A stretch of 64,000 nt of DNA from Escherichia coli. GTDB taxonomy: Bacteria; Pseudomonadota; Gammaproteobacteria; Enterobacterales; Enterobacteriaceae. The stretch lies in assembly GCF_003018115.1 (NCBI RefSeq), contig NZ_CP027457.1; one strand, 5' to 3'. The notes beneath the pieces were generated by a model. That model searched no databases. It was given only the letters and a program-made list of their open reading frames with translations, and was not told the DNA's origin. Position 1 is the stretch's first letter; each line of letters starts with the position of its first letter. Made by a program: the position numbers and the translations under genes. Below, in pieces: positions 1 through 49,308 of the stretch.

Positions 1-331
1 ATTGTGCAGGTCAGCTCGTTTTTAAAGAGTCCGGCCATCATCTTACTGGTACAGACACCATATACTTTGTGACGGTCAGGCTACATATGCACAACTCAAC
101 TTATTCATCTATTTTTTGCTTTAGCATGTCAGTGTTGCTTTCTCGTCGGCGGGTGAGCGGTGACCTGACCTGTCGATAAAGGAACGTAACACGTTTTATG
201 CAACACCCGCATGCGGCAGAAAATTATTGCCGAACGTTTACCCCTGTCAACAAGCTTTACTTTCTGAGGCGCGCCAGCCCGCGAGGAAAACAATCTGAAC
301 ATCAAACAATTAATGACACAAGAAATACGAT

Positions 332-358
332 TAAAGATTTTTTTGTGCATGCCGATAG
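332..358 (+). promoter_or_regulatory. sigma-28 (FliA) type promoter upstream of flxA
   Basis: TAAAGATT (332-339), 11-nt spacer, GCCGATAG (351-358), matching class 3 flagellar promoter consensus TAAAGTTT-N11-GCCGATAA; sits 24 nt upstream of the flxA ATG with AGGAG RBS. Confidence 0.6.
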
Positions 359-381
359 TGCTTTTTTAAAAGGAGAAATCT

Positions 382-714
382 ATGTCTGTCACAATTCAGG
401 GAAATACCTCAACCGTTATTTCAAACAACTCCGCCCCGGAAGGAACATCAGAAATAGCCAAAATCACAAGACAAATTCAGGTGCTGACTGAAAAGCTTGG
501 GAAAATCTCATCGGAAGAGGGGATGACGACACAGCAGAAAAAAGAAATGGCTGCATTGGTACAGAAGCAAATTGAAAGCCTCTGGGCTCAACTGGAGCAG
601 TTGTTAAGGCAGCAGGCAGAGAAAAAGAATGAAGACGCGACAGTTCAGCCTGATAAAAAAGAAGAGAAAAAAGACGATACAAATACCGCTGGCACCATTG
701 ATATTTACGTCTAA
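382..714 (+). CDS. flxA: FlxA, FliA-regulated prophage protein
   Basis: 110-aa ORF MSVTIQGNTSTVISNN... recognised as Qin prophage FlxA; RBS AAGGAG upstream. Confidence 0.85.
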   Translation: MSVTIQGNTSTVISNNSAPEGTSEIAKITRQIQVLTEKLGKISSEEGMTTQQKKEMAALVQKQIESLWAQLEQLLRQQAEKKNEDATVQPDKKEEKKDDTNTAGTIDIYV

Positions 715-728
715 GTGACAGCCGTATT

Positions 729-751
729 GTGGCCCTCATCGGGCCACTTTT
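729..751 (+). terminator. putative hairpin terminator after flxA
   Basis: GTGGCCC-TCATC-GGGCCAC stem-loop followed by TTTTC. Confidence 0.4.
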
Positions 752-879
752 CGCCATCAGCCTTTTCTTTAAAGACATATTATCTTTGTATCATTTCTGA
801 TAGTTAACATTACAAGATATAAGTAATGGACGCACTCCCAATTAGTCTATTTAAATCGCCACGAGTTTAACTGACAACC

Positions 880-2600
880 CATGATCAATTATGAATTGCA
901 ACTATTTCTGTAGTCACTTTTGTGGGGACAGTCCACAAAACTGCCAACTTCCGCTTCTTGCTCTTAGCGGACATTAGCATAGGCTATTTACCATAACGCC
1001 TCATTACGCGCACCGCCCAGACTGACTCAGCGCGTTTCTGGCATATCCCCGGTAAAACAAGTAACAAACCACCCGAAAATGAACACCAGAAACGCGACTT
1101 AAGAATCTACCCTATGAATGGATATGCACTCAACCGAATCGATCTTGGTTTCAATCTTTTTTATCGGGATCAGGCTTCTTTTTAGGTAACTTCGGGGGCT
1201 TAACTTGCTGATGACTTTGCGTTCGGCGCGTAAGCCAGGGATGGTCAGCTTTAGGTTTAACATAGTATTTTGAGCGTAAATCAATACGGGCATTATCCAC
1301 TCGTTCATGGACACTCTTTTCATCATCCAGTGGTATAGGCTCCGGGCCATCAACATACTTTTCCCAGCCCAGCGCTTTCCCGTCATACAGAACGTTAATT
1401 TCACCGTCAAAGTTCTCGCATACAGTAACAACCGAATGCCTAAGTCGATATCCCCGGCCCTCACTGCGTACCTGAAACGCACTGCTTTTGTACTGGAAAG
1501 TGAGATTTTTAGACAGAACGCGCTTCGCCTGTAGGCTGAAGATATAACCCAGTTCCTCTTCAGAATGGTGCACATCAAGATGAGCATTATCAGTAGTACG
1601 AGGCGACGTAGCGAACCGGTTGTTATAGGCTTCAATAAAGGTCGGCAACCATGCATTTGCTGTTTCAATATCACTGATATTCTGAAGCCGCATTTCTTTG
1701 ACCAGCCTGTCCTGTAGTGTCTGATTGGCGCGCTCTACCCGCCCTTTTGCCTGCGGGCTGTTGGCATGGATTGGCTCGATGCCCAGTGTCTTTATCGCAC
1801 GAGTGAACTGGGTCAGCTCACCTTCCCGCTCTGGGTTATTTACCCTGAATATACTGTGTCTATCAGAGTAGAGAGCGAGCGGTACGCCATGATCATTAAG
1901 GTAACCCCGGAGGGTTTCCATGTAAGCCCGGGTTGTTTCAGCAGGCACAAAACGCAACGCCATCAACGCACTGGTGGCATCATCAATGAAAACGATCAGT
2001 GTACATCTGGGGCCTCGATTTTCAAACCAGTCATGAGGTGAGCCATCAATCTGGATCAGTTCACCGTAAGATGGTCGTCGCATGCGGCGTTGATATATAC
2101 GGGCAATTTTACGACGGCGTTCACGCCATAACCCCTCTTCTATCATCCACTTTCTGAGAGTTTCAACGGATAAAGATAAACCGTGTATCTCGCGCAATTT
2201 TTCGCACGCAAACGTAGGTCCAAAATCAGCGTAACGGCCTTTGAGGAGTGAAATTACTGTTGCTCTGAATTCAGTAGAAAAGGAATTATTAGGACGCTTT
2301 CCACGTCGGTGGGAAACCAGACCAGAAGGCCCTTCATTTCTATACCGTTGCACCAGACGTTTAACCTGCCGAATAGAAATGCCAATGCGTGCCGCAGCTT
2401 GTTCCTGAATAATCTGAAGTCGGTGGAGTTCCTTATGACTCATCGTAACAGTCTCTTTGATCATGAAAAATCCCCCAGAGAATTGTCTGGGGACATTTTA
2501 GAATGGTTCAAAGGGGACATTACAGCTTGGTGTTAACAATAGCCTGCTTCTCCGTGCCTTTCGGCACGTAAGAGGCTAACCTACATGTGTCTAGCATGAA
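880..2600 (-). mobile_element. IS481-family-like insertion sequence, boundaries not resolved
   Basis: single 437-aa transposase ORF with N-terminal HTH and rve-type DDE core; interrupts prophage synteny between flxA and the replication module; ends are approximate. Confidence 0.45.
1151..2464 (-). CDS. DDE transposase, IS481-family-like
   Basis: 437 aa; HTH-like N-terminus (ARIGISIRQVKRLVQRY), integrase-core motifs (IDGSPHDWF..., LYSDRHSIF, E in RANQTLQDRL), basic C-terminal tail. Confidence 0.75.
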   Translation of the reverse strand: MIKETVTMSHKELHRLQIIQEQAAARIGISIRQVKRLVQRYRNEGPSGLVSHRRGKRPNNSFSTEFRATVISLLKGRYADFGPTFACEKLREIHGLSLSVETLRKWMIEEGLWRERRRKIARIYQRRMRRPSYGELIQIDGSPHDWFENRGPRCTLIVFIDDATSALMALRFVPAETTRAYMETLRGYLNDHGVPLALYSDRHSIFRVNNPEREGELTQFTRAIKTLGIEPIHANSPQAKGRVERANQTLQDRLVKEMRLQNISDIETANAWLPTFIEAYNNRFATSPRTTDNAHLDVHHSEEELGYIFSLQAKRVLSKNLTFQYKSSAFQVRSEGRGYRLRHSVVTVCENFDGEINVLYDGKALGWEKYVDGPEPIPLDDEKSVHERVDNARIDLRSKYYVKPKADHPWLTRRTQSHQQVKPPKLPKKKPDPDKKD

Positions 2601-2798
2601 ATTGGCCTCAGATTAATGTTAAGCGTCTTGCAGGACGCGTAATGTTAACTGGGGCTTTTCTCTATCTGCCGTTGGTGTCCATGCCCGAGGCAGATAGCCT
2701 CAAGCACCCGCAGTCATTCTACTTAACTAAGATTTCCCCGCAAACCGTTTTTGTCCAGCACAGTAAATATCCAACTAAACCAATGGAGTTCGCTGTAT

Positions 2799-2978
2799 TT
2801 ACCGCCAGTATTCAATGCACATGACCGCCATGAACACCCCTAAAAAAAGGGCATTTATATATCCAAATATTAATATCAAAACATCAACTTTTTCCATATA
2901 CCTTGCTGTGAAGATGATGGGCATACATGATGCGAACAACCAGAACGCAACAAACAAAAACTGCAATGCGTTTTTCAT
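2799..2978 (-). CDS. small hydrophobic protein (59 aa), unknown function
   Basis: ORF MKNALQFLFVAFWLFASCMPIIFTARYMEKVDVLILIFGYINALFLGVFMAVMCIEYWR with two predicted hydrophobic helices; consensus AGGAGG RBS 5 nt upstream of the ATG on the minus strand. Confidence 0.4.
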   Translation of the reverse strand: MKNALQFLFVAFWLFASCMPIIFTARYMEKVDVLILIFGYINALFLGVFMAVMCIEYWR

Positions 2979-3245
2979 TATTCCTCCTACAATCAATGTG
3001 CAATTACATTTAAACACACCTCAATTTGGCCGGACATATAAATATCTAAACCAGAAAAAATCACTTACATAGCGTTACAAACTCTTTAGTCTAAAGGTTC
3101 ATCGTAAAACATTCCCCATACTTATCAGTCCGTTCCGCGCCAGGTAGCTCATTGCCTTATCTGGCAACCTGTAATCAGGTTTCCGCTTTTTCAGTTGGCT
3201 GGTCGTTTAACCGACATAGTTAATCCATTAATCTAGTTGCCGGAT

Positions 3246-3660
3246 GTTGGTGGATTTTCGCGTTTTAGTTGTTCATAAAAGTGCACAGCTTTAACCAGTT
3301 CTTCTGATGTAACTGGGACTGGTGAGGCAGTGAATAAGGCCTGAATTTGATAGTTCGGCCTGTCGTTACAATCCTCTTTTTTCGGTACATATTTCCAGTC
3401 ACCAGACCACTACTTCCCCTGAAAGTCCGTAACGCCTTTTTTCACGTAGCGATATCGCCATGCCACTGGTTTTGCTTGCCCCGCCGTTTCATGCCCTTCC
3501 TGATAATTAATCTCGCTCATTCATCGCCCCACTCATCACAATATGCTTCGACCGGAGTTTTTCCCGCTTCATAGTCATCACGCTAGGATTCGACATCAGC
3601 AGCACTTCCACCGCGTAACTCACCATAGTCCATTAATAGTTCATCCCGCTCTTCAAAACT
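3246..3660 (-). pseudogene. degraded prophage gene remnants (short ORFs broken by stops and frame changes)
   Basis: minus-strand translation gives runs such as MSEINYQEGHETAGQAKPVAWRYRYVKKGVTDFQGK and WSGDWKYVPKKEDCNDRPNYQIQALF... in shifting frames; continues across the IS66 target site. Confidence 0.25.
3653..3660. repeat. target site duplication TCAAAACT (left copy) of the IS66-family element
   Basis: identical 8-mer immediately outside both inverted repeats. Confidence 0.8.
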
Positions 3661-3741
3661 GTAAGCGTCGTCTCAGCACCGTCTGGCAGATCCTGAAATT
3701 CCTGAGAGAATAGTGGACACCAAATATGGTGGACGCAATCC

Positions 3742-4146
3742 ATGAAATCATTAACCGCAGTGCGTAAAAAAAGCCCTAATTATCCCGTTGAGTTCAAAAT
3801 CAAAATGGTTGAACTCTCGCATCGACCAGAGATCTCCGTAGCGCAACTCGCTCGTGAGCATGGGATCAACGATAATTTGCTGTTCAAGTGGCGCCAGTAC
3901 TGGCGCGAAGGAAAACTACGTCCTCCTTCAACAACAGAAAACAACGTGCCTGAGCTGCTCCCGATAACACTTGATGCCGAAGATGTTGTCCCTACAACCT
4001 CCCCCCGGTCACAACCTGTAGCTGCTGCGACACCTGAATCACTCAATATCAGCTGTGAAGTGACGTTCCGGCACGGATCACTCCGTCTGAATGGTGCCAT
4101 CAGCGAAAATATCCTGAACCTGCTGATACGGGAGCTCAAACGTTGA
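3742..4146 (+). CDS. IS66-family TnpA (orf1)
   Basis: 134 aa, HTH-like N-terminus; first ORF of the IS66 triad. Confidence 0.8.
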   Translation: MKSLTAVRKKSPNYPVEFKIKMVELSHRPEISVAQLAREHGINDNLLFKWRQYWREGKLRPPSTTENNVPELLPITLDAEDVVPTTSPRSQPVAAATPESLNISCEVTFRHGSLRLNGAISENILNLLIRELKR

Positions 4147-4490
4147 TCCCATTACCATCAGGGACAAAGATCTGGCTGGTCGCTGGCATCACCGATATGA
4201 GAAACGGCTTCAACGGCCTGGCGGCAAAGGTGCAGACGACGCTGAAAGACGATCCGATGTCAGGTCACGTTTTTATCTTCCGTGGGCGTAATGGCAGTCA
4301 GGTAAAGCTCCTCTGGTCTACCGGCGATGGACTGTGTCTGCTGACCAAACGGCTGGAGCGCGGCCGCTTCGCCTGGCCGTCAGCCCGGGATGGCAAAGTG
4401 TTCCTCACACCGGCACAGCTGGCGATGCTGCTGGAAGGTATCGACTGGCGGCAGCCTAAAAGACTGCTTACGTCCCTGACTATGTTGTAA
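4143..4490 (+). CDS. IS66-family TnpB (orf2)
   Basis: 115 aa MIPLPSGTKIWLVAGITDMRNGFNGLAAKVQ...; overlaps the tnpA stop. Confidence 0.8.
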   Translation: MIPLPSGTKIWLVAGITDMRNGFNGLAAKVQTTLKDDPMSGHVFIFRGRNGSQVKLLWSTGDGLCLLTKRLERGRFAWPSARDGKVFLTPAQLAMLLEGIDWRQPKRLLTSLTML

Positions 4491-4538
4491 GCCTCTTTAT
4501 CCTGGTCGACGCTGAATGAGCCTGGTAATATACCCGGT

Positions 4539-6074
4539 ATGAGCAGCTCACTTCCTGACGATATCAATGCACTGAAACGTCTCCTTGCCGAACAGGAGGC
4601 GCTGAACCGTGCCCTGCAGGAAAAGCTGAACGAGCGTGAACGCGAAATAGACCATCTGCAGGCACAGCTGGATAAGCTGCGCCGGATGAACTTCGGCAGC
4701 CGCTCGGAAAAAGTCTCCCGTCGTATCGCACAGATGGAAGCTGACCTGAAGGCACTTCAGAAAGAAAGTGATACCCTTACCGGTCGGGTTGACGACCCGG
4801 CCGTGCAGCGCCCGCTGCGTCAAACCCGCACCCGCAAACCGTTCCCCGAATCACTCCCCCGCGATGAAAAACGGCTGCTGCCGGCAGCGTCATGCTGCCC
4901 GGAATGTGGAGGCTCGCTGAGCTATCTGGGTGAGGATGCCGCCGAACAGCTGGAGCTGATGCGCAGCGCCTTCCGGGTTATCCGGACTGTACGTGAAAAG
5001 CATGCCTGTACTCAGTGCGATGCCATCGTGCAGGCCCCCGCGCCTTCACGGCCCATCGAGCGGGGTATCGCAGGACCGGGGCTGCTGGCCCGCGTGCTGA
5101 TCTCAAAGTATGCAGAGCACACCCCGCTGTACCGCCAGTCTGAAATGTACGGCCGCCAGGGCGTGGAGCTGAGTCGTTCACTGCTGTCGGGCTGGGTGGA
5201 TGCATGCTGCCGGCTACTGTCACCGCTGGAAGAAGCGCTTCAGGACTATGTGCTGACTGACGGTAAGCTCCATGCTGATGACACGCCTGTCCCGGTGCTG
5301 TTGCCAGGCAATAAGAAAACGAAGACCGGGCGGTTATGGACCTACGTTCGTGACGACCGTAACGCCGGGTCAACGCTGGCGCCGGCGGTGTGGTTCGCTT
5401 ACAGCCCGGACAGAAAAGGCATCCATCCGCAGACCCATCTTGCGGGGTTCAGTGGTGTACTGCAGGCGGATGCATACGCCGGGTTCAACGAGCTGTACCG
5501 GGATGGCCGGATAACGGAAGCCGCCTGTTGGGCTCACGCCCGCCGTAAAATCCACGATGTGCACGTTCGCACCCCGTCAGCCCTGACGGAGGAAGCGCTG
5601 AAACGGATCGGCGAACTGTACGCCATCGAGGCAGAGATAAGGGGAATGACGGCGGAGCAGCGCCTTGCCGAACGTCAGTTGAAAACGAAACCGCTGCTGA
5701 AATCCCTGGAAAGCTGGCTGCGTGAAAAGATGAAAACCCTGTCGCGACACTCAGAACTGGCGAAAGCGTTCGCATACGCCCTGAACCAGTGGCCGGCGCT
5801 GACGTACTATGCAGATGATGGCTGGGCTGAGGCGGACAATAACATCGCTGAAAATGCGTTGCGGATGGTCAGTCTGGGCCGCAAAAACTACCTGTTCTTC
5901 GGTTCGGATCATGGAGGAGAGCGGGGAGCGCTGCTGTACAGCCTGATCGGGACGTGCAAACTGAACGGAGTGGAGCCAGAAAGCTACCTCCGCTATGTCC
6001 TTGACGTCATAGCCGACTGGCCGATAAACCGGGTCGGCGAACTGCTCCCCCTGGCGCGTAGCACTGCCGACTGA
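4539..6074 (+). CDS. IS66-family transposase TnpC (orf3)
   Basis: 511 aa with N-terminal coiled-coil, CxxC pairs (CCPECG, CTQCD) and DDE-type core typical of IS66 transposases. Confidence 0.85.
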
Positions 6075-6115
6075 ATAACACATCCCCGTCAATACGGTTC
6101 TTGCTGCACGCTTAC

Positions 6116-6123
6116 TCAAAACT
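6116..6123. repeat. target site duplication TCAAAACT (right copy) of the IS66-family element
   Basis: identical 8-mer immediately outside both inverted repeats. Confidence 0.8.
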
Positions 6124-6593
6124 GATGTTATATTTAGCTGAACAAAAATCAGCCACTTTGTTCTTCCTCATCGTCTTTTATTTCGTGGTATGAGTAATTG
6201 CAGTAGTTAAAGAAAATTTCTTATGCTCCGTCATGAATTTCCTCAGGTGTTGCGTCATCGTCCACTTCGAATACATCCTCAAAATCTCCACCAGCTATTC
6301 CCGTTTCAATAATAATTTTGAACTTTCGCATTTCACTACCGCCCTTTCGGGCGGCCTCCTGATGTTCTGAGGGTGCAGAAATCCATCCGGTTAAGGATTA
6401 AATTTTATTTACAGAACTGAATTTAATTATTCAGATATACGTATCTGTAGCCTTACGAATCTACTCACTGGATGCCTCTTTCATAAAAATAATCCAGTGG
6501 GTTTTATCGTTTTTTCCCTGTTCGTTGACAGATAACAGGTTTTCTGTCTGTCAGTGCCAGAATCTGGCTTACCGGTATTTGCGTTTCATTCCA

Positions 6594-6950
6594 TTAAAAA
6601 ATCAGAACGCCGTGCGGCCTCAACACCCGAAAGGCTTCTTTAAATCTCTGTCGCGAATCATCACGCCAGGCATCTTTATTCAGCCGTCCATATTTCTTTC
6701 CCATCCAGGCGTTATCACCAACACTCTCAAGATGCGGAGGGTCTAATACAACCATCGAAAAAGATGCGTCTGCAAATGATAATGCACGAAAATCTGCGAT
6801 AATGTCAGGGCTGATAATCAAGCGTCTCCCATTGCGTAATGTGTATCCTTCTTTTCTGATATCGCTGAATATCGCCCGTTCGTCAGACTTATCGAACCAG
6901 AACATGCGGCTGCCACAGCACATATCAAGAATGGTTGCCGGTGCACTCAC
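6594..6950 (-). CDS. small SAM-dependent methyltransferase-like protein (118 aa), possibly truncated or orphan
   Basis: G-loop-like motif ILDMCCGSRMF and a DPPH motif (DPPY-like amino-methyltransferase motif IV); start overlaps the stop of the upstream ORF by 4 nt. Confidence 0.4.
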   Translation of the reverse strand: MSAPATILDMCCGSRMFWFDKSDERAIFSDIRKEGYTLRNGRRLIISPDIIADFRALSFADASFSMVVLDPPHLESVGDNAWMGKKYGRLNKDAWRDDSRQRFKEAFRVLRPHGVLIF

Positions 6951-7369
6951 TGCGCCACGTCCTGAAAATTACCCTGATAGAAAGCCAGTATGCGCTGCAT
7001 AACTTCGCTCTTCCGGCACTCGCGACAGATTATGTTTAGGCGACTGTCGTAGCGACGTATTTCTCCGTCAGGTGATGACCAGATAAGGTCCGGATCAACC
7101 ACAGCAGGTTTCTTCACCTTTGCCCTCGAGAGTTTTTTGCGGGCGTTTTGCCAGTCCTTACGCGCCTGTTCAGAGGGGAATAACCCGTAGCCGGAGTTGT
7201 ATACATCGCCACTGGCTACCAGCTCTCTGGCAAGAACGCTCATCAGATATCTAGTCGCACCTGTTTTAGCTTCCAGTTGCCGTAACGTCTCACGGCCGCT
7301 CTGGCGCACGAGTTCCACCACCTGCCATTTAATTTTTTCCCGCTCTTCTTGTGTAAAAACTTTTGCCAC
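6947..7369 (-). CDS. hypothetical prophage protein (140 aa)
   Basis: ORF immediately downstream of the replication gene on the same strand; no recognisable family from sequence alone. Confidence 0.4.
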   Translation of the reverse strand: MAKVFTQEEREKIKWQVVELVRQSGRETLRQLEAKTGATRYLMSVLARELVASGDVYNSGYGLFPSEQARKDWQNARKKLSRAKVKKPAVVDPDLIWSSPDGEIRRYDSRLNIICRECRKSEVMQRILAFYQGNFQDVAQ

Positions 7370-7409
7370 AAGTCCCCCTTAAAATTACCTCATGACCTGA
7401 AATCAACAC

Positions 7410-8375
7410 TTATCCTCTGAAACCAGGCGGAATTTCTGTATCCGGTTCAGAAATATGATTAACACAACGCTGTACAGGTGAACGTCCCAGGCGGATGACC
7501 AGTTCGTCCCATTTTTCGCGGAGCTTTGACGGGCTCATGATGTTTTTTACCCAGAATGGATCTCGCTGAACCCGACCAAACATTTCGCAAATTTGTCTGT
7601 GGCTTCTGCCATCCAGCATCCGCATTGTGCGCACGTCATTGGCCCAGGCAGTCCAGTTAGGCTCTTTTGGTCGCATGATCTCGCCATCATCACTGGCTGC
7701 CTGTTCGTAGAGACCCACGATCCGCCCCCAGATCCACTGCGCACACGCCAAATCCTCCCTGCTACCCCACTGGCGTTTTTTCGCACTAAACACAACCGCG
7801 TCGGAGTTCCGGGTTAAAAAATCCTGTTCAGTCGTCTGCGGGTCCGGTTGCGAAGCTTCCGGACGAAAAGTGTTTTTATTCTCTGTAGTAATCTCTGTTG
7901 TATTCTCTGTAAGATCATCAGGCCATTTTGACCCGATGACATTGGGTCGTTTTGAACCAATGGAGCGTTTCATTTTGACCTCTTCCATCGTGTCATTTTG
8001 ACCTGATGGAGCGGCGCATTTTGAACCGATGGATTCGCTCAATTTGCCACCATCTAAAAGCTCGCTCCCATAGTTGATCGTGTAGAAATTGGTCATATCG
8101 CGCTTTGATTTATTGAGCTTTTCACAACGCAAAAGCCCCAGCGTTTTCAGACTTGCAAACGCGCGCTTTAACGTTGACTCTGACCAGAATGGGAACTGTT
8201 CCAGCCATTGTTCCGTTGTGTTATAAATCCAGCGAACACCATCACATTCCATGCCGGAGTTGGTATCTCTCAACCAGTAGTGCAGTTGTTGCAAAACAAT
8301 GGCTTCGTTTAAGCCAATTTTCATTGCCAGCTGCGTGTTTATAACCAGTGGACGTTCAGCAAAAAGAAGGCTCAT
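7410..8375 (-). CDS. phage replication initiator, lambda O-like (replisome organiser)
   Basis: N-terminal region resembles the phage O N-terminal DNA-binding domain; iterons embedded in the coding sequence (protein repeats IGSK); start uncertain: TTG at 8429, ATG at 8375 or ATG at 8324. Confidence 0.6.
   Translation of the reverse strand: MSLLFAERPLVINTQLAMKIGLNEAIVLQQLHYWLRDTNSGMECDGVRWIYNTTEQWLEQFPFWSESTLKRAFASLKTLGLLRCEKLNKSKRDMTNFYTINYGSELLDGGKLSESIGSKCAAPSGQNDTMEEVKMKRSIGSKRPNVIGSKWPDDLTENTTEITTENKNTFRPEASQPDPQTTEQDFLTRNSDAVVFSAKKRQWGSREDLACAQWIWGRIVGLYEQAASDDGEIMRPKEPNWTAWANDVRTMRMLDGRSHRQICEMFGRVQRDPFWVKNIMSPSKLREKWDELVIRLGRSPVQRCVNHISEPDTEIPPGFRG
7924..8054. repeat. iteron array (putative prophage origin of replication) inside the O-like gene
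   Basis: five to six copies of CATTTTGA(C/A)C(N)GATGG-like units at about 23-24 bp spacing (near 7924, 7949, 7971, 7994, 8017, 8041), flanked at 7861-7923 by ATTCTCTGT repeats and an AT-rich stretch. Confidence 0.6.
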
Positions 8376-8877
8376 AATTCCATCCAGCTTTTTGTTGGTA
8401 TTGCTGTCGATACGCAAGTTTGAAAGCAATTGCTTTTTCTATAAGTTCGTCAGTTTCACGATCCACTACGGCAGGATCAGCAAAAAGCAGTCCGGACTCC
8501 ACCACATCGCCATATTCTTTGTTTAACCCGGCGATCATGCACGTGATGCTTTTTCCGTCAGTAATTTCACGATACAACCTGAAATCATTAATCCGGATAG
8601 CCTCCATAATTGCAGGCACTAGCGCCGTGAACTTTTCACGCTTATCCCTGGTGTCGATAGCCTTCCAGCGTTCAAATATCTTCACTCGATTAACGCCAAG
8701 CGCTCGCTGATCAATCGCGCCACCTTCATATGTGACACGCTGAACATCGATGTTCGGGCGCTCTTTCAAAGCCCAGAATGCTTCAGTGATTAATATCGTC
8801 GCCTGCTCCTGTGTCATTCCTGGTCGACATATCCAGGCATCCAGAGCCTCACGAGCCTGTTCAGGAGTGATTTTCAT
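8356..8877 (-). CDS. hypothetical prophage early protein (173 aa)
   Basis: ORF between the cro-like dicC and the O-like gene on the same strand; ATG start. Confidence 0.45.
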   Translation of the reverse strand: MKITPEQAREALDAWICRPGMTQEQATILITEAFWALKERPNIDVQRVTYEGGAIDQRALGVNRVKIFERWKAIDTRDKREKFTALVPAIMEAIRINDFRLYREITDGKSITCMIAGLNKEYGDVVESGLLFADPAVVDRETDELIEKAIAFKLAYRQQYQQKAGWNYEPSFC

Positions 8878-10622: not shown

Positions 10623-10675
10623 TTTCTGGTGACGTTTGGCGGTATCAGTTTTACTCCGTGACTGCTCTGCCGCCC
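10623..10675 (+). ncRNA. dicF: DicF small RNA (ftsZ-targeting, processed from the dicA operon transcript)
   Basis: sequence TTTCTGGTGACGTTTGGCGGTATCAGTTTTACTCCGTGACTGCTCTGCCGCCC followed by a T-run, between ydfC and dicB. Confidence 0.8.
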
Positions 10676-11318: not shown

Positions 11319-13790
11319 ATGAGTAAAGTCTTTATTTGCGCCGCTATTCCTGACGAACTGGCAACAAGGGAAGAAGGCGCTGTGGCTGTAGCCACAGCCA
11401 TTGAAGCTGGCGACGAACGCCGTGCTCGAGCAAAATTTCACTGGCAATTCCTGGAACATTATCCGGCTGCTCAGGACTGCGCTTATAAATTTATTGTCTG
11501 CGAGGATAAACCTGGCATACCCCGCCCTGCCCTCGATTCATGGGATGCTGAATATATGCAGGAAAACCGCTGGGATGAGGAGTCTGCTTCTTTTGTCCCG
11601 GTTGAGACTGAATCCGATCCGATGAACGTCACTTTTGACAAGCTGGCCCCTGAAGTACAGAACGCTGTCATGGTTAAGTTCGACACATGTGAAAACATCA
11701 CCGTTGATATGGTTATTAGCGCACAGGAATTGTTGCAGGAAGACATGGCAACATTCGACGGACATATCGTTGAAGCGTTGATGAAAATGCCAGAAGTTAA
11801 CGCCATGTATCCGGAGCTTAAGTTGCACGCCATTGGGTGGGTTAAGCATAAATGTATTCCTGGTGCTAAATGGCCCGAAATTCAGGCAGAGATGCGCATC
11901 TGGAAAAAACGTCGCGAAGGTGAACGCAAGGAAACCGGAAAATACACGTCTGTTGTTGATCTCGCCCGCGCCAGAGCCAATCAACAGTACACTGAAAATT
12001 CAACAGGAAAAATCAGCCCGGTCATTGCTGCCATTCATCGCGAATACAAGCAGACATGGAAAACACTGGATGACGAACTGGCCTACGCTCTCTGGCCTAG
12101 TGATGTGGATGCCGGAAACATTGACGGCAGCATCCATCGCTGGGCAAAAAAAGAAGTTATCGACAACGACCGCGAAGACTGGAAGCGTATCTCGGCATCA
12201 ATGCGCAAACAGCCTGATGCCCTTCGCTACGACCGCCAAACTATTTTTGGCCTTGTCCGTGAGCGTCCGATCGACATTCACAAAGATCCCGTAGCACTGA
12301 ACAAATATATCTGCGAATACCTGACGACAAAGGGCGTGTTTGAGAATGAAGAAACAGACCTGGGCACTGTTGATGTTCTCCAGTCATCAGAAACACAAAC
12401 TGATGCAGTGGAAACTGAGGTATCTGATATCCCAAAAAATGAAACCGCGCCGGAAGCTGAACCATCTGTAGAGCGTGAGGGGCCGTTCTATTTCCTCTTC
12501 GCAGATAAGGACGGAGAAAAATACGGTCGCGCAAACAAACTCTCTGGTCTGGATAAGGCACTGGCTGCTGGCGCCACTGAAATCACAAAAGAAGAATATT
12601 TTGCCCGAAAAAATGGCACATACACGGGCTTACCGCAAAATGTAGATACCGCTGAAGATTCAGAACAACCAGAGCCGATAAAAGTTACCGCTGACGAAGT
12701 AAACAAAATTATGCAGGCAGCCAATATCAGCCAGCCTGACGCCGATAAGTTGCTTGCTGCATCACGTGGTGAATTTGTTGAAGGGATTAGTGACCCGAAT
12801 GATCCGAAATGGGTTAAGGGGCTCCAGACCCGCGATTCTGTGAACCAGAACCAGCATGAATCGGAACGGAACTACCAAAAAGCGGAACAAAACAGTCCAA
12901 ATGCGTTACAAAACGAGCCAGAAACGAAACAGCCTGAACCAGTAGCGCAACAGGAAGTGGAAAAAGTCTGCACCGCCTGCGGTCAGACCGGCGGCGGCAA
13001 CTGCCCTGATTGTGGCGCGGTGATGGGCGACGCAACATACCAAGAAACATTCGATGAAGAGTATCAGGTTGAAGTTCAGGAAGATGATCCGGAGGAAATG
13101 GAAGGCGCTGAACATCCACACAAGGAGAACACTGGCGGCAATCAGCATCACAATAGCGATAATGAAACTGGCGAGACGGCAGATCACCCAATTAAGGTGA
13201 ACGGTCATCACGAAATCACATCCACCAGCAGGACGTGTGACCATCTAATGATCGACCTTGAAACCATGGGAAAAAATCCTGATGCCCCGATCATCTCAAT
13301 AGGTGCAATATTTTTCGATCCGCAAACCGGAGATATGGGACCGGAATTTAGTAAGACTATCGATCTGGAAACTGCTGGCGGAGTCATTGATCGGGACACC
13401 ATTAAATGGTGGCTTAAGCAATCACGCGAAGCGCAATCTGCCATTATGACCGATGAAATCCCGTTAGATGATGCACTGTTACAATTGCGAGAATTTATCG
13501 ACGAAAACTCCGGTGAATTTTTTGTTCAGGTTTGGGGAAATGGAGCCAACTTCGACAACACGATTTTGCGCCGTTCATACGAACGGCAGGGGATCCCCTG
13601 CCCGTGGCGTTACTACAACGATCGCGATGTACGCACAATCGTTGAGCTGGGGAAAGCCATAGACTTCGATGCCAGAACGGCTATTCCATTCGAAGGTGAG
13701 CGCCATAATGCACTTGATGACGCCCGTTACCAGGCAAAATACGTTTCAGTTATCTGGCAAAAACTGATCCCGAGTCAGGCTGATTCTTAA
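11319..13790 (+). CDS. ydfE: YdfE-family protein with C-terminal DnaQ-like (DEDDh) 3'-5' exonuclease domain
   Basis: N-terminus MSKVFICAAIPDELATREEG... matches YdfE; acidic low-complexity linker; CxxC-x8-CxxC ribbon (CTACGQTGGGNCPDCG); C-terminal exonuclease motifs MIDLETMG, WGNGANFD, HNALDDARY. Confidence 0.8.
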   Translation: MSKVFICAAIPDELATREEGAVAVATAIEAGDERRARAKFHWQFLEHYPAAQDCAYKFIVCEDKPGIPRPALDSWDAEYMQENRWDEESASFVPVETESDPMNVTFDKLAPEVQNAVMVKFDTCENITVDMVISAQELLQEDMATFDGHIVEALMKMPEVNAMYPELKLHAIGWVKHKCIPGAKWPEIQAEMRIWKKRREGERKETGKYTSVVDLARARANQQYTENSTGKISPVIAAIHREYKQTWKTLDDELAYALWPSDVDAGNIDGSIHRWAKKEVIDNDREDWKRISASMRKQPDALRYDRQTIFGLVRERPIDIHKDPVALNKYICEYLTTKGVFENEETDLGTVDVLQSSETQTDAVETEVSDIPKNETAPEAEPSVEREGPFYFLFADKDGEKYGRANKLSGLDKALAAGATEITKEEYFARKNGTYTGLPQNVDTAEDSEQPEPIKVTADEVNKIMQAANISQPDADKLLAASRGEFVEGISDPNDPKWVKGLQTRDSVNQNQHESERNYQKAEQNSPNALQNEPETKQPEPVAQQEVEKVCTACGQTGGGNCPDCGAVMGDATYQETFDEEYQVEVQEDDPEEMEGAEHPHKENTGGNQHHNSDNETGETADHPIKVNGHHEITSTSRTCDHLMIDLETMGKNPDAPIISIGAIFFDPQTGDMGPEFSKTIDLETAGGVIDRDTIKWWLKQSREAQSAIMTDEIPLDDALLQLREFIDENSGEFFVQVWGNGANFDNTILRRSYERQGIPCPWRYYNDRDVRTIVELGKAIDFDARTAIPFEGERHNALDDARYQAKYVSVIWQKLIPSQADS

Positions 13791-13862
13791 TGTTCAACTG
13801 TCGCCGGTTGTGACTGGTATTCTGCAACCGGCGCTCGTCTGATGTAAGAGATAAAGAAATCG

Positions 13863-14114
13863 ATGAGCGAAGTAATCATGATTGTCTCTCCCGGCAAATG
13901 GGTATCCGAAGAGCAGTTAATTGCGCTGAAAGGAATAAAAAAAGGTACGTTAAAAAAGGCCCGGGAAAAATCGTTTATGGAAGGAAGGGAATATAAGCAT
14001 GTCGCTCATGACGGTATGCCATGGGATAACAGTCCATGCTTTTACAACCTGGAAGAAATTGATCGCTGGATTGAGCGCCAGGCATCAGCGAGACCAAGAC
14101 GTCATCTTACTTGA
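13863..14114 (+). CDS. excisionase-like protein
   Basis: 83-aa basic ORF directly upstream of the integrase, the typical lambdoid xis position. Confidence 0.6.
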   Translation: MSEVIMIVSPGKWVSEEQLIALKGIKKGTLKKAREKSFMEGREYKHVAHDGMPWDNSPCFYNLEEIDRWIERQASARPRRHLT

Positions 14115-14133
14115 CTAAAAGCCACACTAACTA

Positions 14134-15429
14134 ATGAGAGAAGTTGAAATGAAATATCCGACAGGCGTGGAAAACCATGGAGGGAAATTACGTATCTGGT
14201 TTGTTTATAAAGACGTAAGAGTCAGGGAAAATCTGGGGGTTCCTGACACAGCAAAAAACAGGCGCGTTGCAGGTGAACTACGCTCCTCTGTTTGTTACGC
14301 AATAAAAACTGGTGTTTTCGACTATGCAAAACAGTTTCCCTCCTCACGCAATCTGGAAAAATTTGGTGAGGCCCGACAAGATTTAACCATAAAAGAACTG
14401 GCTGAAAAATTTCTGGCACTGAAAGAAACTGAAGTCGCCAAAACATCACTCAACACATACCGTGCCGTCATCAAAAATATCCTGAGCATAATCGGTGAAA
14501 AAAATCTTGCCTCATCGATTAATAAAGAAAAATTACTGGAGGTTCGTAAAGAGTTACTGACTGGATACCAGATCCCCAAAAGTAACTATATTGTTACACA
14601 ACCAGGGAGATCGGCTGTAACTGTAAATAATTACATGACAAATCTTAACGCCGTGTTCCAGTTTGGTGTTGATAACGGTTACCTGGCAGATAATCCGTTT
14701 AAGGGGATCTCGCCATTAAAGGAATCAAGAACCATTCCGGATCCTCTTTCGCGGGAAGAATTTATCCGTCTTATCGATGCGTGCAGAAATCAGCAAGCAA
14801 AAAATTTATGGTGTGTTTCTGTTTATACTGGAGTTCGCCCTGGTGAGCTGTGTGCACTTGGATGGGAGGACATAGATCTGAAAAATGGAACAATGATGAT
14901 CAGGAGAAATTTAGCAAAAGACCGTTTCACGGTACCAAAAACACAGGCGGGAACCAATCGGGTCATTCATCTTATTAAGCCAGCAATCGACGCTCTCCGG
15001 AGTCAGATGACATTAACGAGACTGAGCAAAGAGCATATCATTGATGTTCACCTCAGAGAGTATGGCAGAACAGAAAAACAAAAATGCACCTTTGTTTTTC
15101 AACCTGAAGTGTCAGCGAGAGTAAAAAATTATGGTGACCATTTTACCGTTGACTCAATAAGGCAGATGTGGGACGCAGCGATAAAACGTGCCGGACTCCG
15201 CCATCGAAAATCATATCAGTCGAGACATACTTATGCCTGCTGGTCGCTGACAGCTGGTGCTAACCCGGCATTTATAGCAAACCAGATGGGCCATGCAGAT
15301 GCGCAAATGGTATTTCAGGTATACGGAAAATGGATGTCTGAAAACAATAATGCACAGGTAGCTTTGTTAAATACACAGTTAAGCGAGTTTGCCCCAACCA
15401 TGCCCCATAACGAAGCAATGAAAAATTAA
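14134..15429 (+). CDS. intQ: tyrosine recombinase, phage integrase (IntQ-like, full length)
   Basis: 431 aa with C-terminal catalytic motifs (HxxR in SRHTYACW, Y in VFQVYGKW); last gene before core rspB. Confidence 0.85.
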   Translation: MREVEMKYPTGVENHGGKLRIWFVYKDVRVRENLGVPDTAKNRRVAGELRSSVCYAIKTGVFDYAKQFPSSRNLEKFGEARQDLTIKELAEKFLALKETEVAKTSLNTYRAVIKNILSIIGEKNLASSINKEKLLEVRKELLTGYQIPKSNYIVTQPGRSAVTVNNYMTNLNAVFQFGVDNGYLADNPFKGISPLKESRTIPDPLSREEFIRLIDACRNQQAKNLWCVSVYTGVRPGELCALGWEDIDLKNGTMMIRRNLAKDRFTVPKTQAGTNRVIHLIKPAIDALRSQMTLTRLSKEHIIDVHLREYGRTEKQKCTFVFQPEVSARVKNYGDHFTVDSIRQMWDAAIKRAGLRHRKSYQSRHTYACWSLTAGANPAFIANQMGHADAQMVFQVYGKWMSENNNAQVALLNTQLSEFAPTMPHNEAMKN

Positions 15430-40686: not shown

Positions 40687-41146
40687 TCATGTACGAGCTA
40701 AATGTTACTCCGTTAAAATAAATTAGTAACAAACGCCCTATAACGTACTGAAAATTATGCCTGTGATCTAGCTCCAAAAATCAGTATTTCGGCGTGAACT
40801 CGCAAAATATTAACGATTCAGCCGTGATAGTGGGATAAACACCTTAGAACGCTGGATAAAGACTGATAATTGTCTTCGACGGTCAGGTAAAACGAGACAT
40901 CGCCCCGGCACGAATCACTACTTAACATTAAATTAACTTATACAATTCAGTTGCTTCAGTAGTATTGATGCTGATACGGCTGTTTTTTAAGCATAGACGG
41001 TCATTTGGGCAGGATTAAAATTGGCTTAAGGAATCTGATATGAAAAATGACGCAGACAGTTACACCGTTTAAATGCAATAATCAGCCACGTTTCTCGTTA
41101 ATAACAATACCAGTACCTGGTTTGCGCAAGGCGAAGGATTATTTTT

Positions 41147-46945: not shown

Positions 46946-49308
<2,363 letters not shown>

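Follow-up and report, generated by a model that had tools for sequence, protein, structure and literature searches.

The sigma-28 promoter of the prophage gene flxA in a non-K-12 Escherichia coli and its recurrence upstream of FlxA homologues

The gene flxA lies close to one end of the window, the whole 64,000-nucleotide stretch of Escherichia coli DNA that was analysed, at positions 382-714 on the + strand. Its 110-aa product was identical to WP_001301033.1 (b1566) and matched the FlxA-like family PF14282 in Pfam (53.8 bits against a gathering cutoff of 26.3, E 2.3e-14). The + strand carries flxA and the upstream gene ydfV, which ends at 179, and the - strand carries dicC (cro-like), the replication genes, ydfU, the Q antiterminator gene and the lysis and structural genes. 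As the early-right and late genes of the phage are on the - strand, flxA is transcribed against the phage programme. On one side of flxA are relBE, hokD, rem, ydfU, the Q antiterminator gene and the lysis and structural genes, and on the other are IS elements, the replication genes, dicC/dicA, the exonuclease gene, xis and int; the flxA cassette is placed between the replication genes and the Q antiterminator gene of this Qin-type lambdoid prophage. The cassette had a G+C content of 0.43, compared with 0.475 in the prophage and 0.50 in the chromosomal part of the window.

Window positions 1-1335 were 100% identical to E. coli K-12 MG1655, including the segment 150-760, which was present in 1202 of 5426 complete E. 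coli genomes, and the corresponding locus in NC_000913.3 is annotated as flxA (b1566) within the feature 'cryptic prophage Qin'. Two segments of the window are absent from K-12, namely 1336-8597, with an ISNCY element, ISEc22 and methyltransferase, replication and ydaT genes, and 12086-14269, with an intact exonuclease gene. The closest record examined was Ecol_AZ155, which was 98.5-99.6% identical across the window and whose Qin-type prophage retains integrase, excisionase, exonuclease, terminase, head and tail genes. The Qin-type prophage of this non-K-12 strain is far more complete than that of K-12.

Several other features were observed in the surroundings of flxA. The spacer between ydfV and flxA contains a near-consensus sigma-70-like promoter on the - strand (250..223, TTGACA-16-AATAAT, 11/12) that aims antisense into ydfV, toward relBE. 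An intact ORF for a 437-aa ISNCY-type transposase with HTH and rve_3 domains occupies 1151-2464 (-), and its 3' end (1151-1300) corresponds to the 49-aa 'protein YdfW' annotated in K-12. Because homology to K-12 ends at 1335, ydfW looks like a remnant of an ISNCY transposase. Between the ISNCY element and ISEc22, a match to the Rfam sok antitoxin RNA (RF01794, 104 bits) was found at 2538-2709 (-), which would add a hok/sok-type locus to the hokD gene located just upstream of the window. The DicF small RNA (RF00039, 76.7 bits), which is expected in a Qin-type prophage, was located at 10624-10675 (+).

Upstream of flxA and on the same strand are the two elements of a sigma-28 (FliA) promoter, flxAp. 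The -35 element TAAAGATT is at 332-339 and agrees with the consensus TAAAGTTT at seven of eight positions, the 11-nt spacer TTTTTGTGCAT is at 340-350, and the -10 element GCCGATAG is at 351-358, again with seven of eight positions shared with the consensus GCCGATAA. The distance from the end of the -10 element to the ATG at 382 is 23 nt, and a Shine-Dalgarno sequence AAGGAG (370-375), read from the sequence 6 nt before the ATG, is located between them. A transcription start was predicted at 366-368 from the usual distance between sigma-28 starts and the -10 element. Downstream of the flxA stop codon, folding identified a terminator-like hairpin, GTGGCCC-TCATC-GGGCCAC (729-747) followed by TTTT (729-751 in total), with a 7-bp G+C-rich stem, a minimum free energy of -17.3 kcal/mol and a z-score of -2.55. 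A simple terminator scan called no terminator after flxA, as the hairpin was passed over because its T-run consists of just 4 T; the hairpin would nevertheless be expected to function as the terminator of flxA.

The original prediction was of a close match to the FliA consensus upstream of flxA, and this was confirmed at 332-358, where flxAp agreed with TAAAGTTT-N11-GCCGATAA at 14 of 16 positions and was the sole match with two or fewer mismatches on either strand of the 64-kb window. From dinucleotide shuffles, 0.01 such matches were expected by chance. With up to three mismatches 0.70 matches were expected, yet flxAp was still the sole match. A sigma-28 position weight matrix was constructed from 24 published FliA ChIP-seq sites (PMC4183435 Table 2, FAT >4), with flxA excluded from the training sites, for which the median score was 19.5 bits and the minimum 8.6 bits. 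The matrix score of flxAp was 21.6 bits, above that median, and ranked first among approximately 128,000 window positions. In its elements, its 11-nt spacing, its orientation and its distance to the gene, flxAp has the form of a sigma-28 class 3 promoter.

Lower-scoring matrix matches elsewhere in the window were also recorded. The second-best score was at 12156-12183 (-) (18.8 bits, TCCAGTCTTCGCGGTCGTTGTCGATAAC), antisense within the prophage exonuclease gene. This segment is absent from K-12 and the candidate would therefore be invisible to ChIP-seq in K-12; it resembles the numerous intragenic FliA sites of Fitzgerald et al. (PMC4183435). A third candidate was found at 48766-48793 (-) with 15.7 bits. 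The sequence at 40785-40812 (-), TAATATTTTGCGAGTTCACGCCGAAATA, exactly repeats a weak FliA motif that published ChIP-seq data assign to pntA, and it scored 12.4 bits; for the pntA motif a FAT of 1 and expression of 140 vs 169, without FliA dependence, have been described (PMC4183435).

FliA control of flxA is well documented in K-12. The FliA ChIP-seq motif assigned to flxA is the 28-mer TAAAGATTTTTTTGTGCATGCCGATAGT with a FAT of 16 (PMC4183435 Table 2, Fitzgerald et al. 2014), and by string comparison window positions 332-359 were equal to it letter for letter. The comparison of flxA transcript levels between a fliA mutant and the wild type that had been proposed as a check is already in the literature for the identical K-12 DNA, with a normalised expression of 280 in motile MG1655 vs 2 in the fliA deletion, marked as significant (PMC4183435), and a -28.4-fold change in a fliA deletion by microarray, where the gene is listed under 'Qin prophage' (Zhao et al. 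2007, PMC1935009). Five minutes after FliA induction flxA was up-regulated 8.2-fold (PMC1935009). Genomic SELEX with sigma-28 holoenzyme alone gave a peak in the ydfV/flxA spacer with an intensity of 23.2 (PMC5493296), and therefore binding needs no activator. Where insertions upstream of flhDC activate motility, flxA expression was 35-fold higher (PMC11237407), and in LysR-regulator mutants it shifted along with that of the flagellar genes (PMC9068703). In PMC4183435, flxA is mentioned solely in the introduction and the FliA section and goes unmentioned in the FlhDC part; it is therefore probably not one of the 11 FlhDC-bound sites of that paper, which fits a class 3 gene. The second element of the original prediction, that a prophage-borne gene is under host flagellar class 3 control, was thus supported, as the identical 28-mer is bound by FliA and the mRNA depends on FliA. 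Published work has demonstrated FliA binding in vivo, holoenzyme binding in vitro and a near-total FliA dependence of the mRNA on the identical K-12 DNA. Since fliA and flhDC lie outside the 64-kb window, we infer K-12-like behaviour for this non-K-12 strain.

Positions 332-358 are almost certainly flxAp, a class 3 promoter read by sigma-28 and driving a short monocistronic flxA mRNA from a moron-like cassette. RNA polymerase carrying sigma-28 (FliA) would bind TAAAGATT at -35 and GCCGATAG at -10 across the 11-nt spacer. Transcription would probably start at about 366-368, giving a leader of approximately 15 nt that carries the AAGGAG, and the short, monocistronic flxA mRNA is predicted to end at the hairpin and U-run at 729-751. 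The anti-sigma factor FlgM keeps FliA inactive until the hook-basal body is complete and FlgM is exported. Because of this sequestration flxA would be expressed late, together with flagellin (fliC), che and tar.

The promoter was nearly invariant within E. coli. Of the 1203 E. coli records with the 75 nt at 318-392, 1105 had them unchanged and the other 98 were 95-99% identical. The sole variants among the E. coli genomes read were G348T and G348A, both of which alter the spacer and neither of the octamers. The phage record PhiR42_1 also contains flxA with the same promoter. Six of 1247 E. coli matches to window 150-760 were on plasmids. On one plasmid, pCRST049_1 (NZ_AP045823.1, 88 kb, E. coli; L007 4001-4397), flxA has an intact sigma-28 promoter and adjoins IS26 and mph(A)-mrx(A)-mphR(A), genes for resistance to macrolides.

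A HMMER scan of 1.84 billion representatives with FlxA as a single-sequence query returned 48 relatives at E ≤0.001, so that the FlxA family appears small as viewed from a single-sequence query. Those homologues that could be placed belong to the Enterobacterales, and the named members of the homologue clusters were Enterobacter sp., [Erwinia] mediterraneensis and an unclassified Enterobacteriaceae bacterium. The DNA was examined for twelve homologues, ten of which were approximately 26-86% identical to FlxA (L008, L011, L013, L015, L016, L018, L019, L020, L022 and L024), the other two being the most remote. A sigma-28-type site was present in all ten of the former group and ended 23-32 nt before the ATG, with a TAAAG- or TCAAG-type -35 element, a spacer of 11-12 nt and (G)CCGATAA. 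In each of the ten, no position on either strand of the locus outscored this site with the matrix (10.1-21.5 bits), and shuffles of the 120 nt upstream equalled the observed match in no more than 1.25% of trials per locus. The spacers and flanks of the homologues have diverged, which indicates that the conservation of the promoter is a footprint beyond mere relatedness. In P0160 and P0153, the most remote pair (E ~1e-4 to 1e-3, one of them from DNA of 67% G+C), the best sigma-28-like matches were weak, at 7.8 and 6.6 bits, below the training minimum, and they were not taken as support for a conserved promoter.

No prophage features were detected among the called genes at at least eight of the ten homologue loci. 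A gene for a LysR-type regulator adjoins the flxA homologue at six of them (L013, L016, L018, L020, L022 and L024), and beyond it are a gene for an SBF-like transporter, a QSregVF_b gene and ligA at L016, L020 and L024. The gltX gene is nearby at L018, and at L019 the neighbours are an aldo-keto reductase gene and an AraC-type gene. Prophage status was less clear at L008 (Enterobacter sp. HG048), of which short-contig versions lie beside an integrase and a transposase. As a side observation on gene order, the LysR-family gene is convergent with the flxA homologue at five of the six loci and is upstream on the same strand at L022.

Three other explanations of the site and its history were weighed against this evidence. 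The motif at 332-358 could be a chance match without promoter function, a reading to which the 0.70 matches expected in the window at up to three mismatches lend some room. However, flxAp has just two mismatches, at which level 0.01 are expected, its score has the first rank of about 128,000, and a real gene, correctly oriented, follows it at a distance of 23 nt. The site is moreover a published FliA ChIP-seq site of a gene with 140-fold FliA dependence (PMC4183435), and the promoter has been kept across the FlxA family even though its surroundings diverge. We assign a chance match virtually no probability, the published ChIP-seq and RNA-seq data on identical DNA having refuted it. It is also very improbable that flxA owes its expression mainly to ydfV read-through or to a sigma-70 promoter, with the sigma-28 site in a minor role. 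The gene ydfV, which has the same orientation, does end upstream at 179, but without fliA expression drops from 280 to 2, which leaves almost nothing for such sources under those conditions (PMC4183435). In addition, sigma-28 holoenzyme alone picks the ydfV/flxA spacer in vitro (PMC5493296), and a search of the + strand of window 1-1200 gave no sigma-70-like promoter.

The third explanation concerns where the promoter came from, and holds that it evolved within the prophage, as an adaptation by which the phage couples one of its genes to the host flagellar programme, and did not come in with the gene. Such an origin was implied by the wording of the original prediction, and E. coli flxA has been found in Qin-type prophages and one phage record. 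Against it, homologues of approximately 26-64% identity have ordinary chromosomal genes as their called neighbours and a sigma-28-type promoter at the same distance, and we regard an origin inside the prophage as unlikely, with slightly more room than either of the readings above. Because homologues outside recognisable prophages carry the same type of promoter, the control was probably not made by a prophage. Judging from the sequences compared, sigma-28 control looks ancestral to the FlxA family rather than invented in a prophage, which is the simplest reading, and the simplest account of the E. coli locus would likewise be that a Qin-type phage captured promoter, gene and terminator as a single unit.

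The function of FlxA was considered from its predicted structure and from published proteomes. As late as 2024 flxA was counted among the uncharacterised genes of Qin (PMC11551758). The AlphaFold model of FlxA, based on a 19-sequence alignment, had a mean pLDDT of 67 and was confident for the helical hairpin at residues 24-87 alone; it comprises a disordered N-terminus (1-21), helices at 24-42 and 50-87 that form the hairpin, and a disordered tail (88-110). In most FlxA homologues the C-terminal residues form a conserved (I/V)D(I/V)Y(V/I) motif. A Foldseek search of the model against the PDB gave nothing at E <0.8 and returned generic helical hairpins only, so the structure yields no functional clue. 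In an E. coli culture exoproteome FlxA rises with FlgK, FliD, FliC, FlgL, FlgM and FlgE (PMC6391000), and at 42 C, where FlgM secretion is inefficient, FlxA protein and mRNA shift in opposite directions (PMC6551532). These two observations hint, speculatively, that FlxA leaves the cell by way of the flagellar export machinery. The list of that exoproteome also contains cytoplasmic proteins, CheY for one (PMC6391000), and for this reason export of FlxA is a lead without the weight of evidence. The broader proposal, in which the FlxA family would be an ancestral part of the Enterobacterales sigma-28 regulon, its products late substrates of flagellar type III export and the E. coli gene a cassette carried by Qin-type phages, is tentative, and as a whole we consider it doubtful. 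It draws on the promoter kept in all ten homologues, on the disordered ends, helical hairpin and C-terminal motif of the protein and on the exoproteome and 42 C observations, which are pointers rather than tests.

The sigma-28 promoter of flxA and its reading have been known since 1997, with reconfirmation by ChIP-seq and RNA-seq in 2014. The original report of FliA-dependent flxA is said to be that of Ide and Kutsukake in 1997 (Gene 199:19). The gene has since been a textbook non-flagellar target of FliA and the promoter finding itself adds nothing new; flxAp serves as a positive control, in that a real sigma-28 promoter was recognisable from sequence alone. What is new here is the layout of the cassette, with its own promoter and hairpin and opposed to the phage genes, together with the family-wide conservation of the promoter. 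Across the homologues examined, the sigma-28 promoter travels with the FlxA family both inside and outside prophages. This argues for a conserved FlxA role tied to late flagellar assembly, and for a prophage that captured a member of the host regulon rather than a rewired phage gene.

Among known systems, the flxAp of K-12 (b1566, cryptic prophage Qin) is the same element, with window 1-1335 and the 28-mer identical, and only the surroundings differ in that the prophage of this strain is fuller. The class 3 promoters of flgMN, tar, fliC, tsr and motAB share with flxAp a TAAAG-type -35 element, an 11-nt spacer and a GCCGATAA-type -10 element. In contrast to these canonical promoters, the final base of the flxAp -10 element is G rather than A and the promoter is located in a prophage. 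To go by the title of the Ide and Kutsukake paper of 1997, the flxA product is reportedly dispensable for motility, unlike those of the canonical class 3 genes. The dependence of flxA on FliA is comparable to that of tar and tsr. The -35 octamer TAAAGATT of flgMN is identical to that of flxAp, and the -10 variant GCCGATAG is also that of yrfF (PMC4183435 Table 2). The gene ykfB of the CP4-6 prophage is likewise a prophage gene with a FliA ChIP-seq site (FAT 24, 118 vs 42; PMC4183435), although the effect on ykfB (-3.7x / +4.0x; PMC1935009) is far weaker than that on flxA. Unlike flxAp, the ykfB site is inside the upstream gene yafY and has a poor -35 match.

In the lambdoid phages, morons are autonomous cassettes of promoter, gene and terminator carried in prophages. 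The flxA cassette differs from these in using an alternative host sigma factor, not sigma-70, and its G+C content is only modestly under the prophage average (0.43 against 0.475). It resembles them in lying between prophage modules with its own promoter and a hairpin that would act as its terminator, in being oriented against phage transcription and in being expressed from the lysogen.
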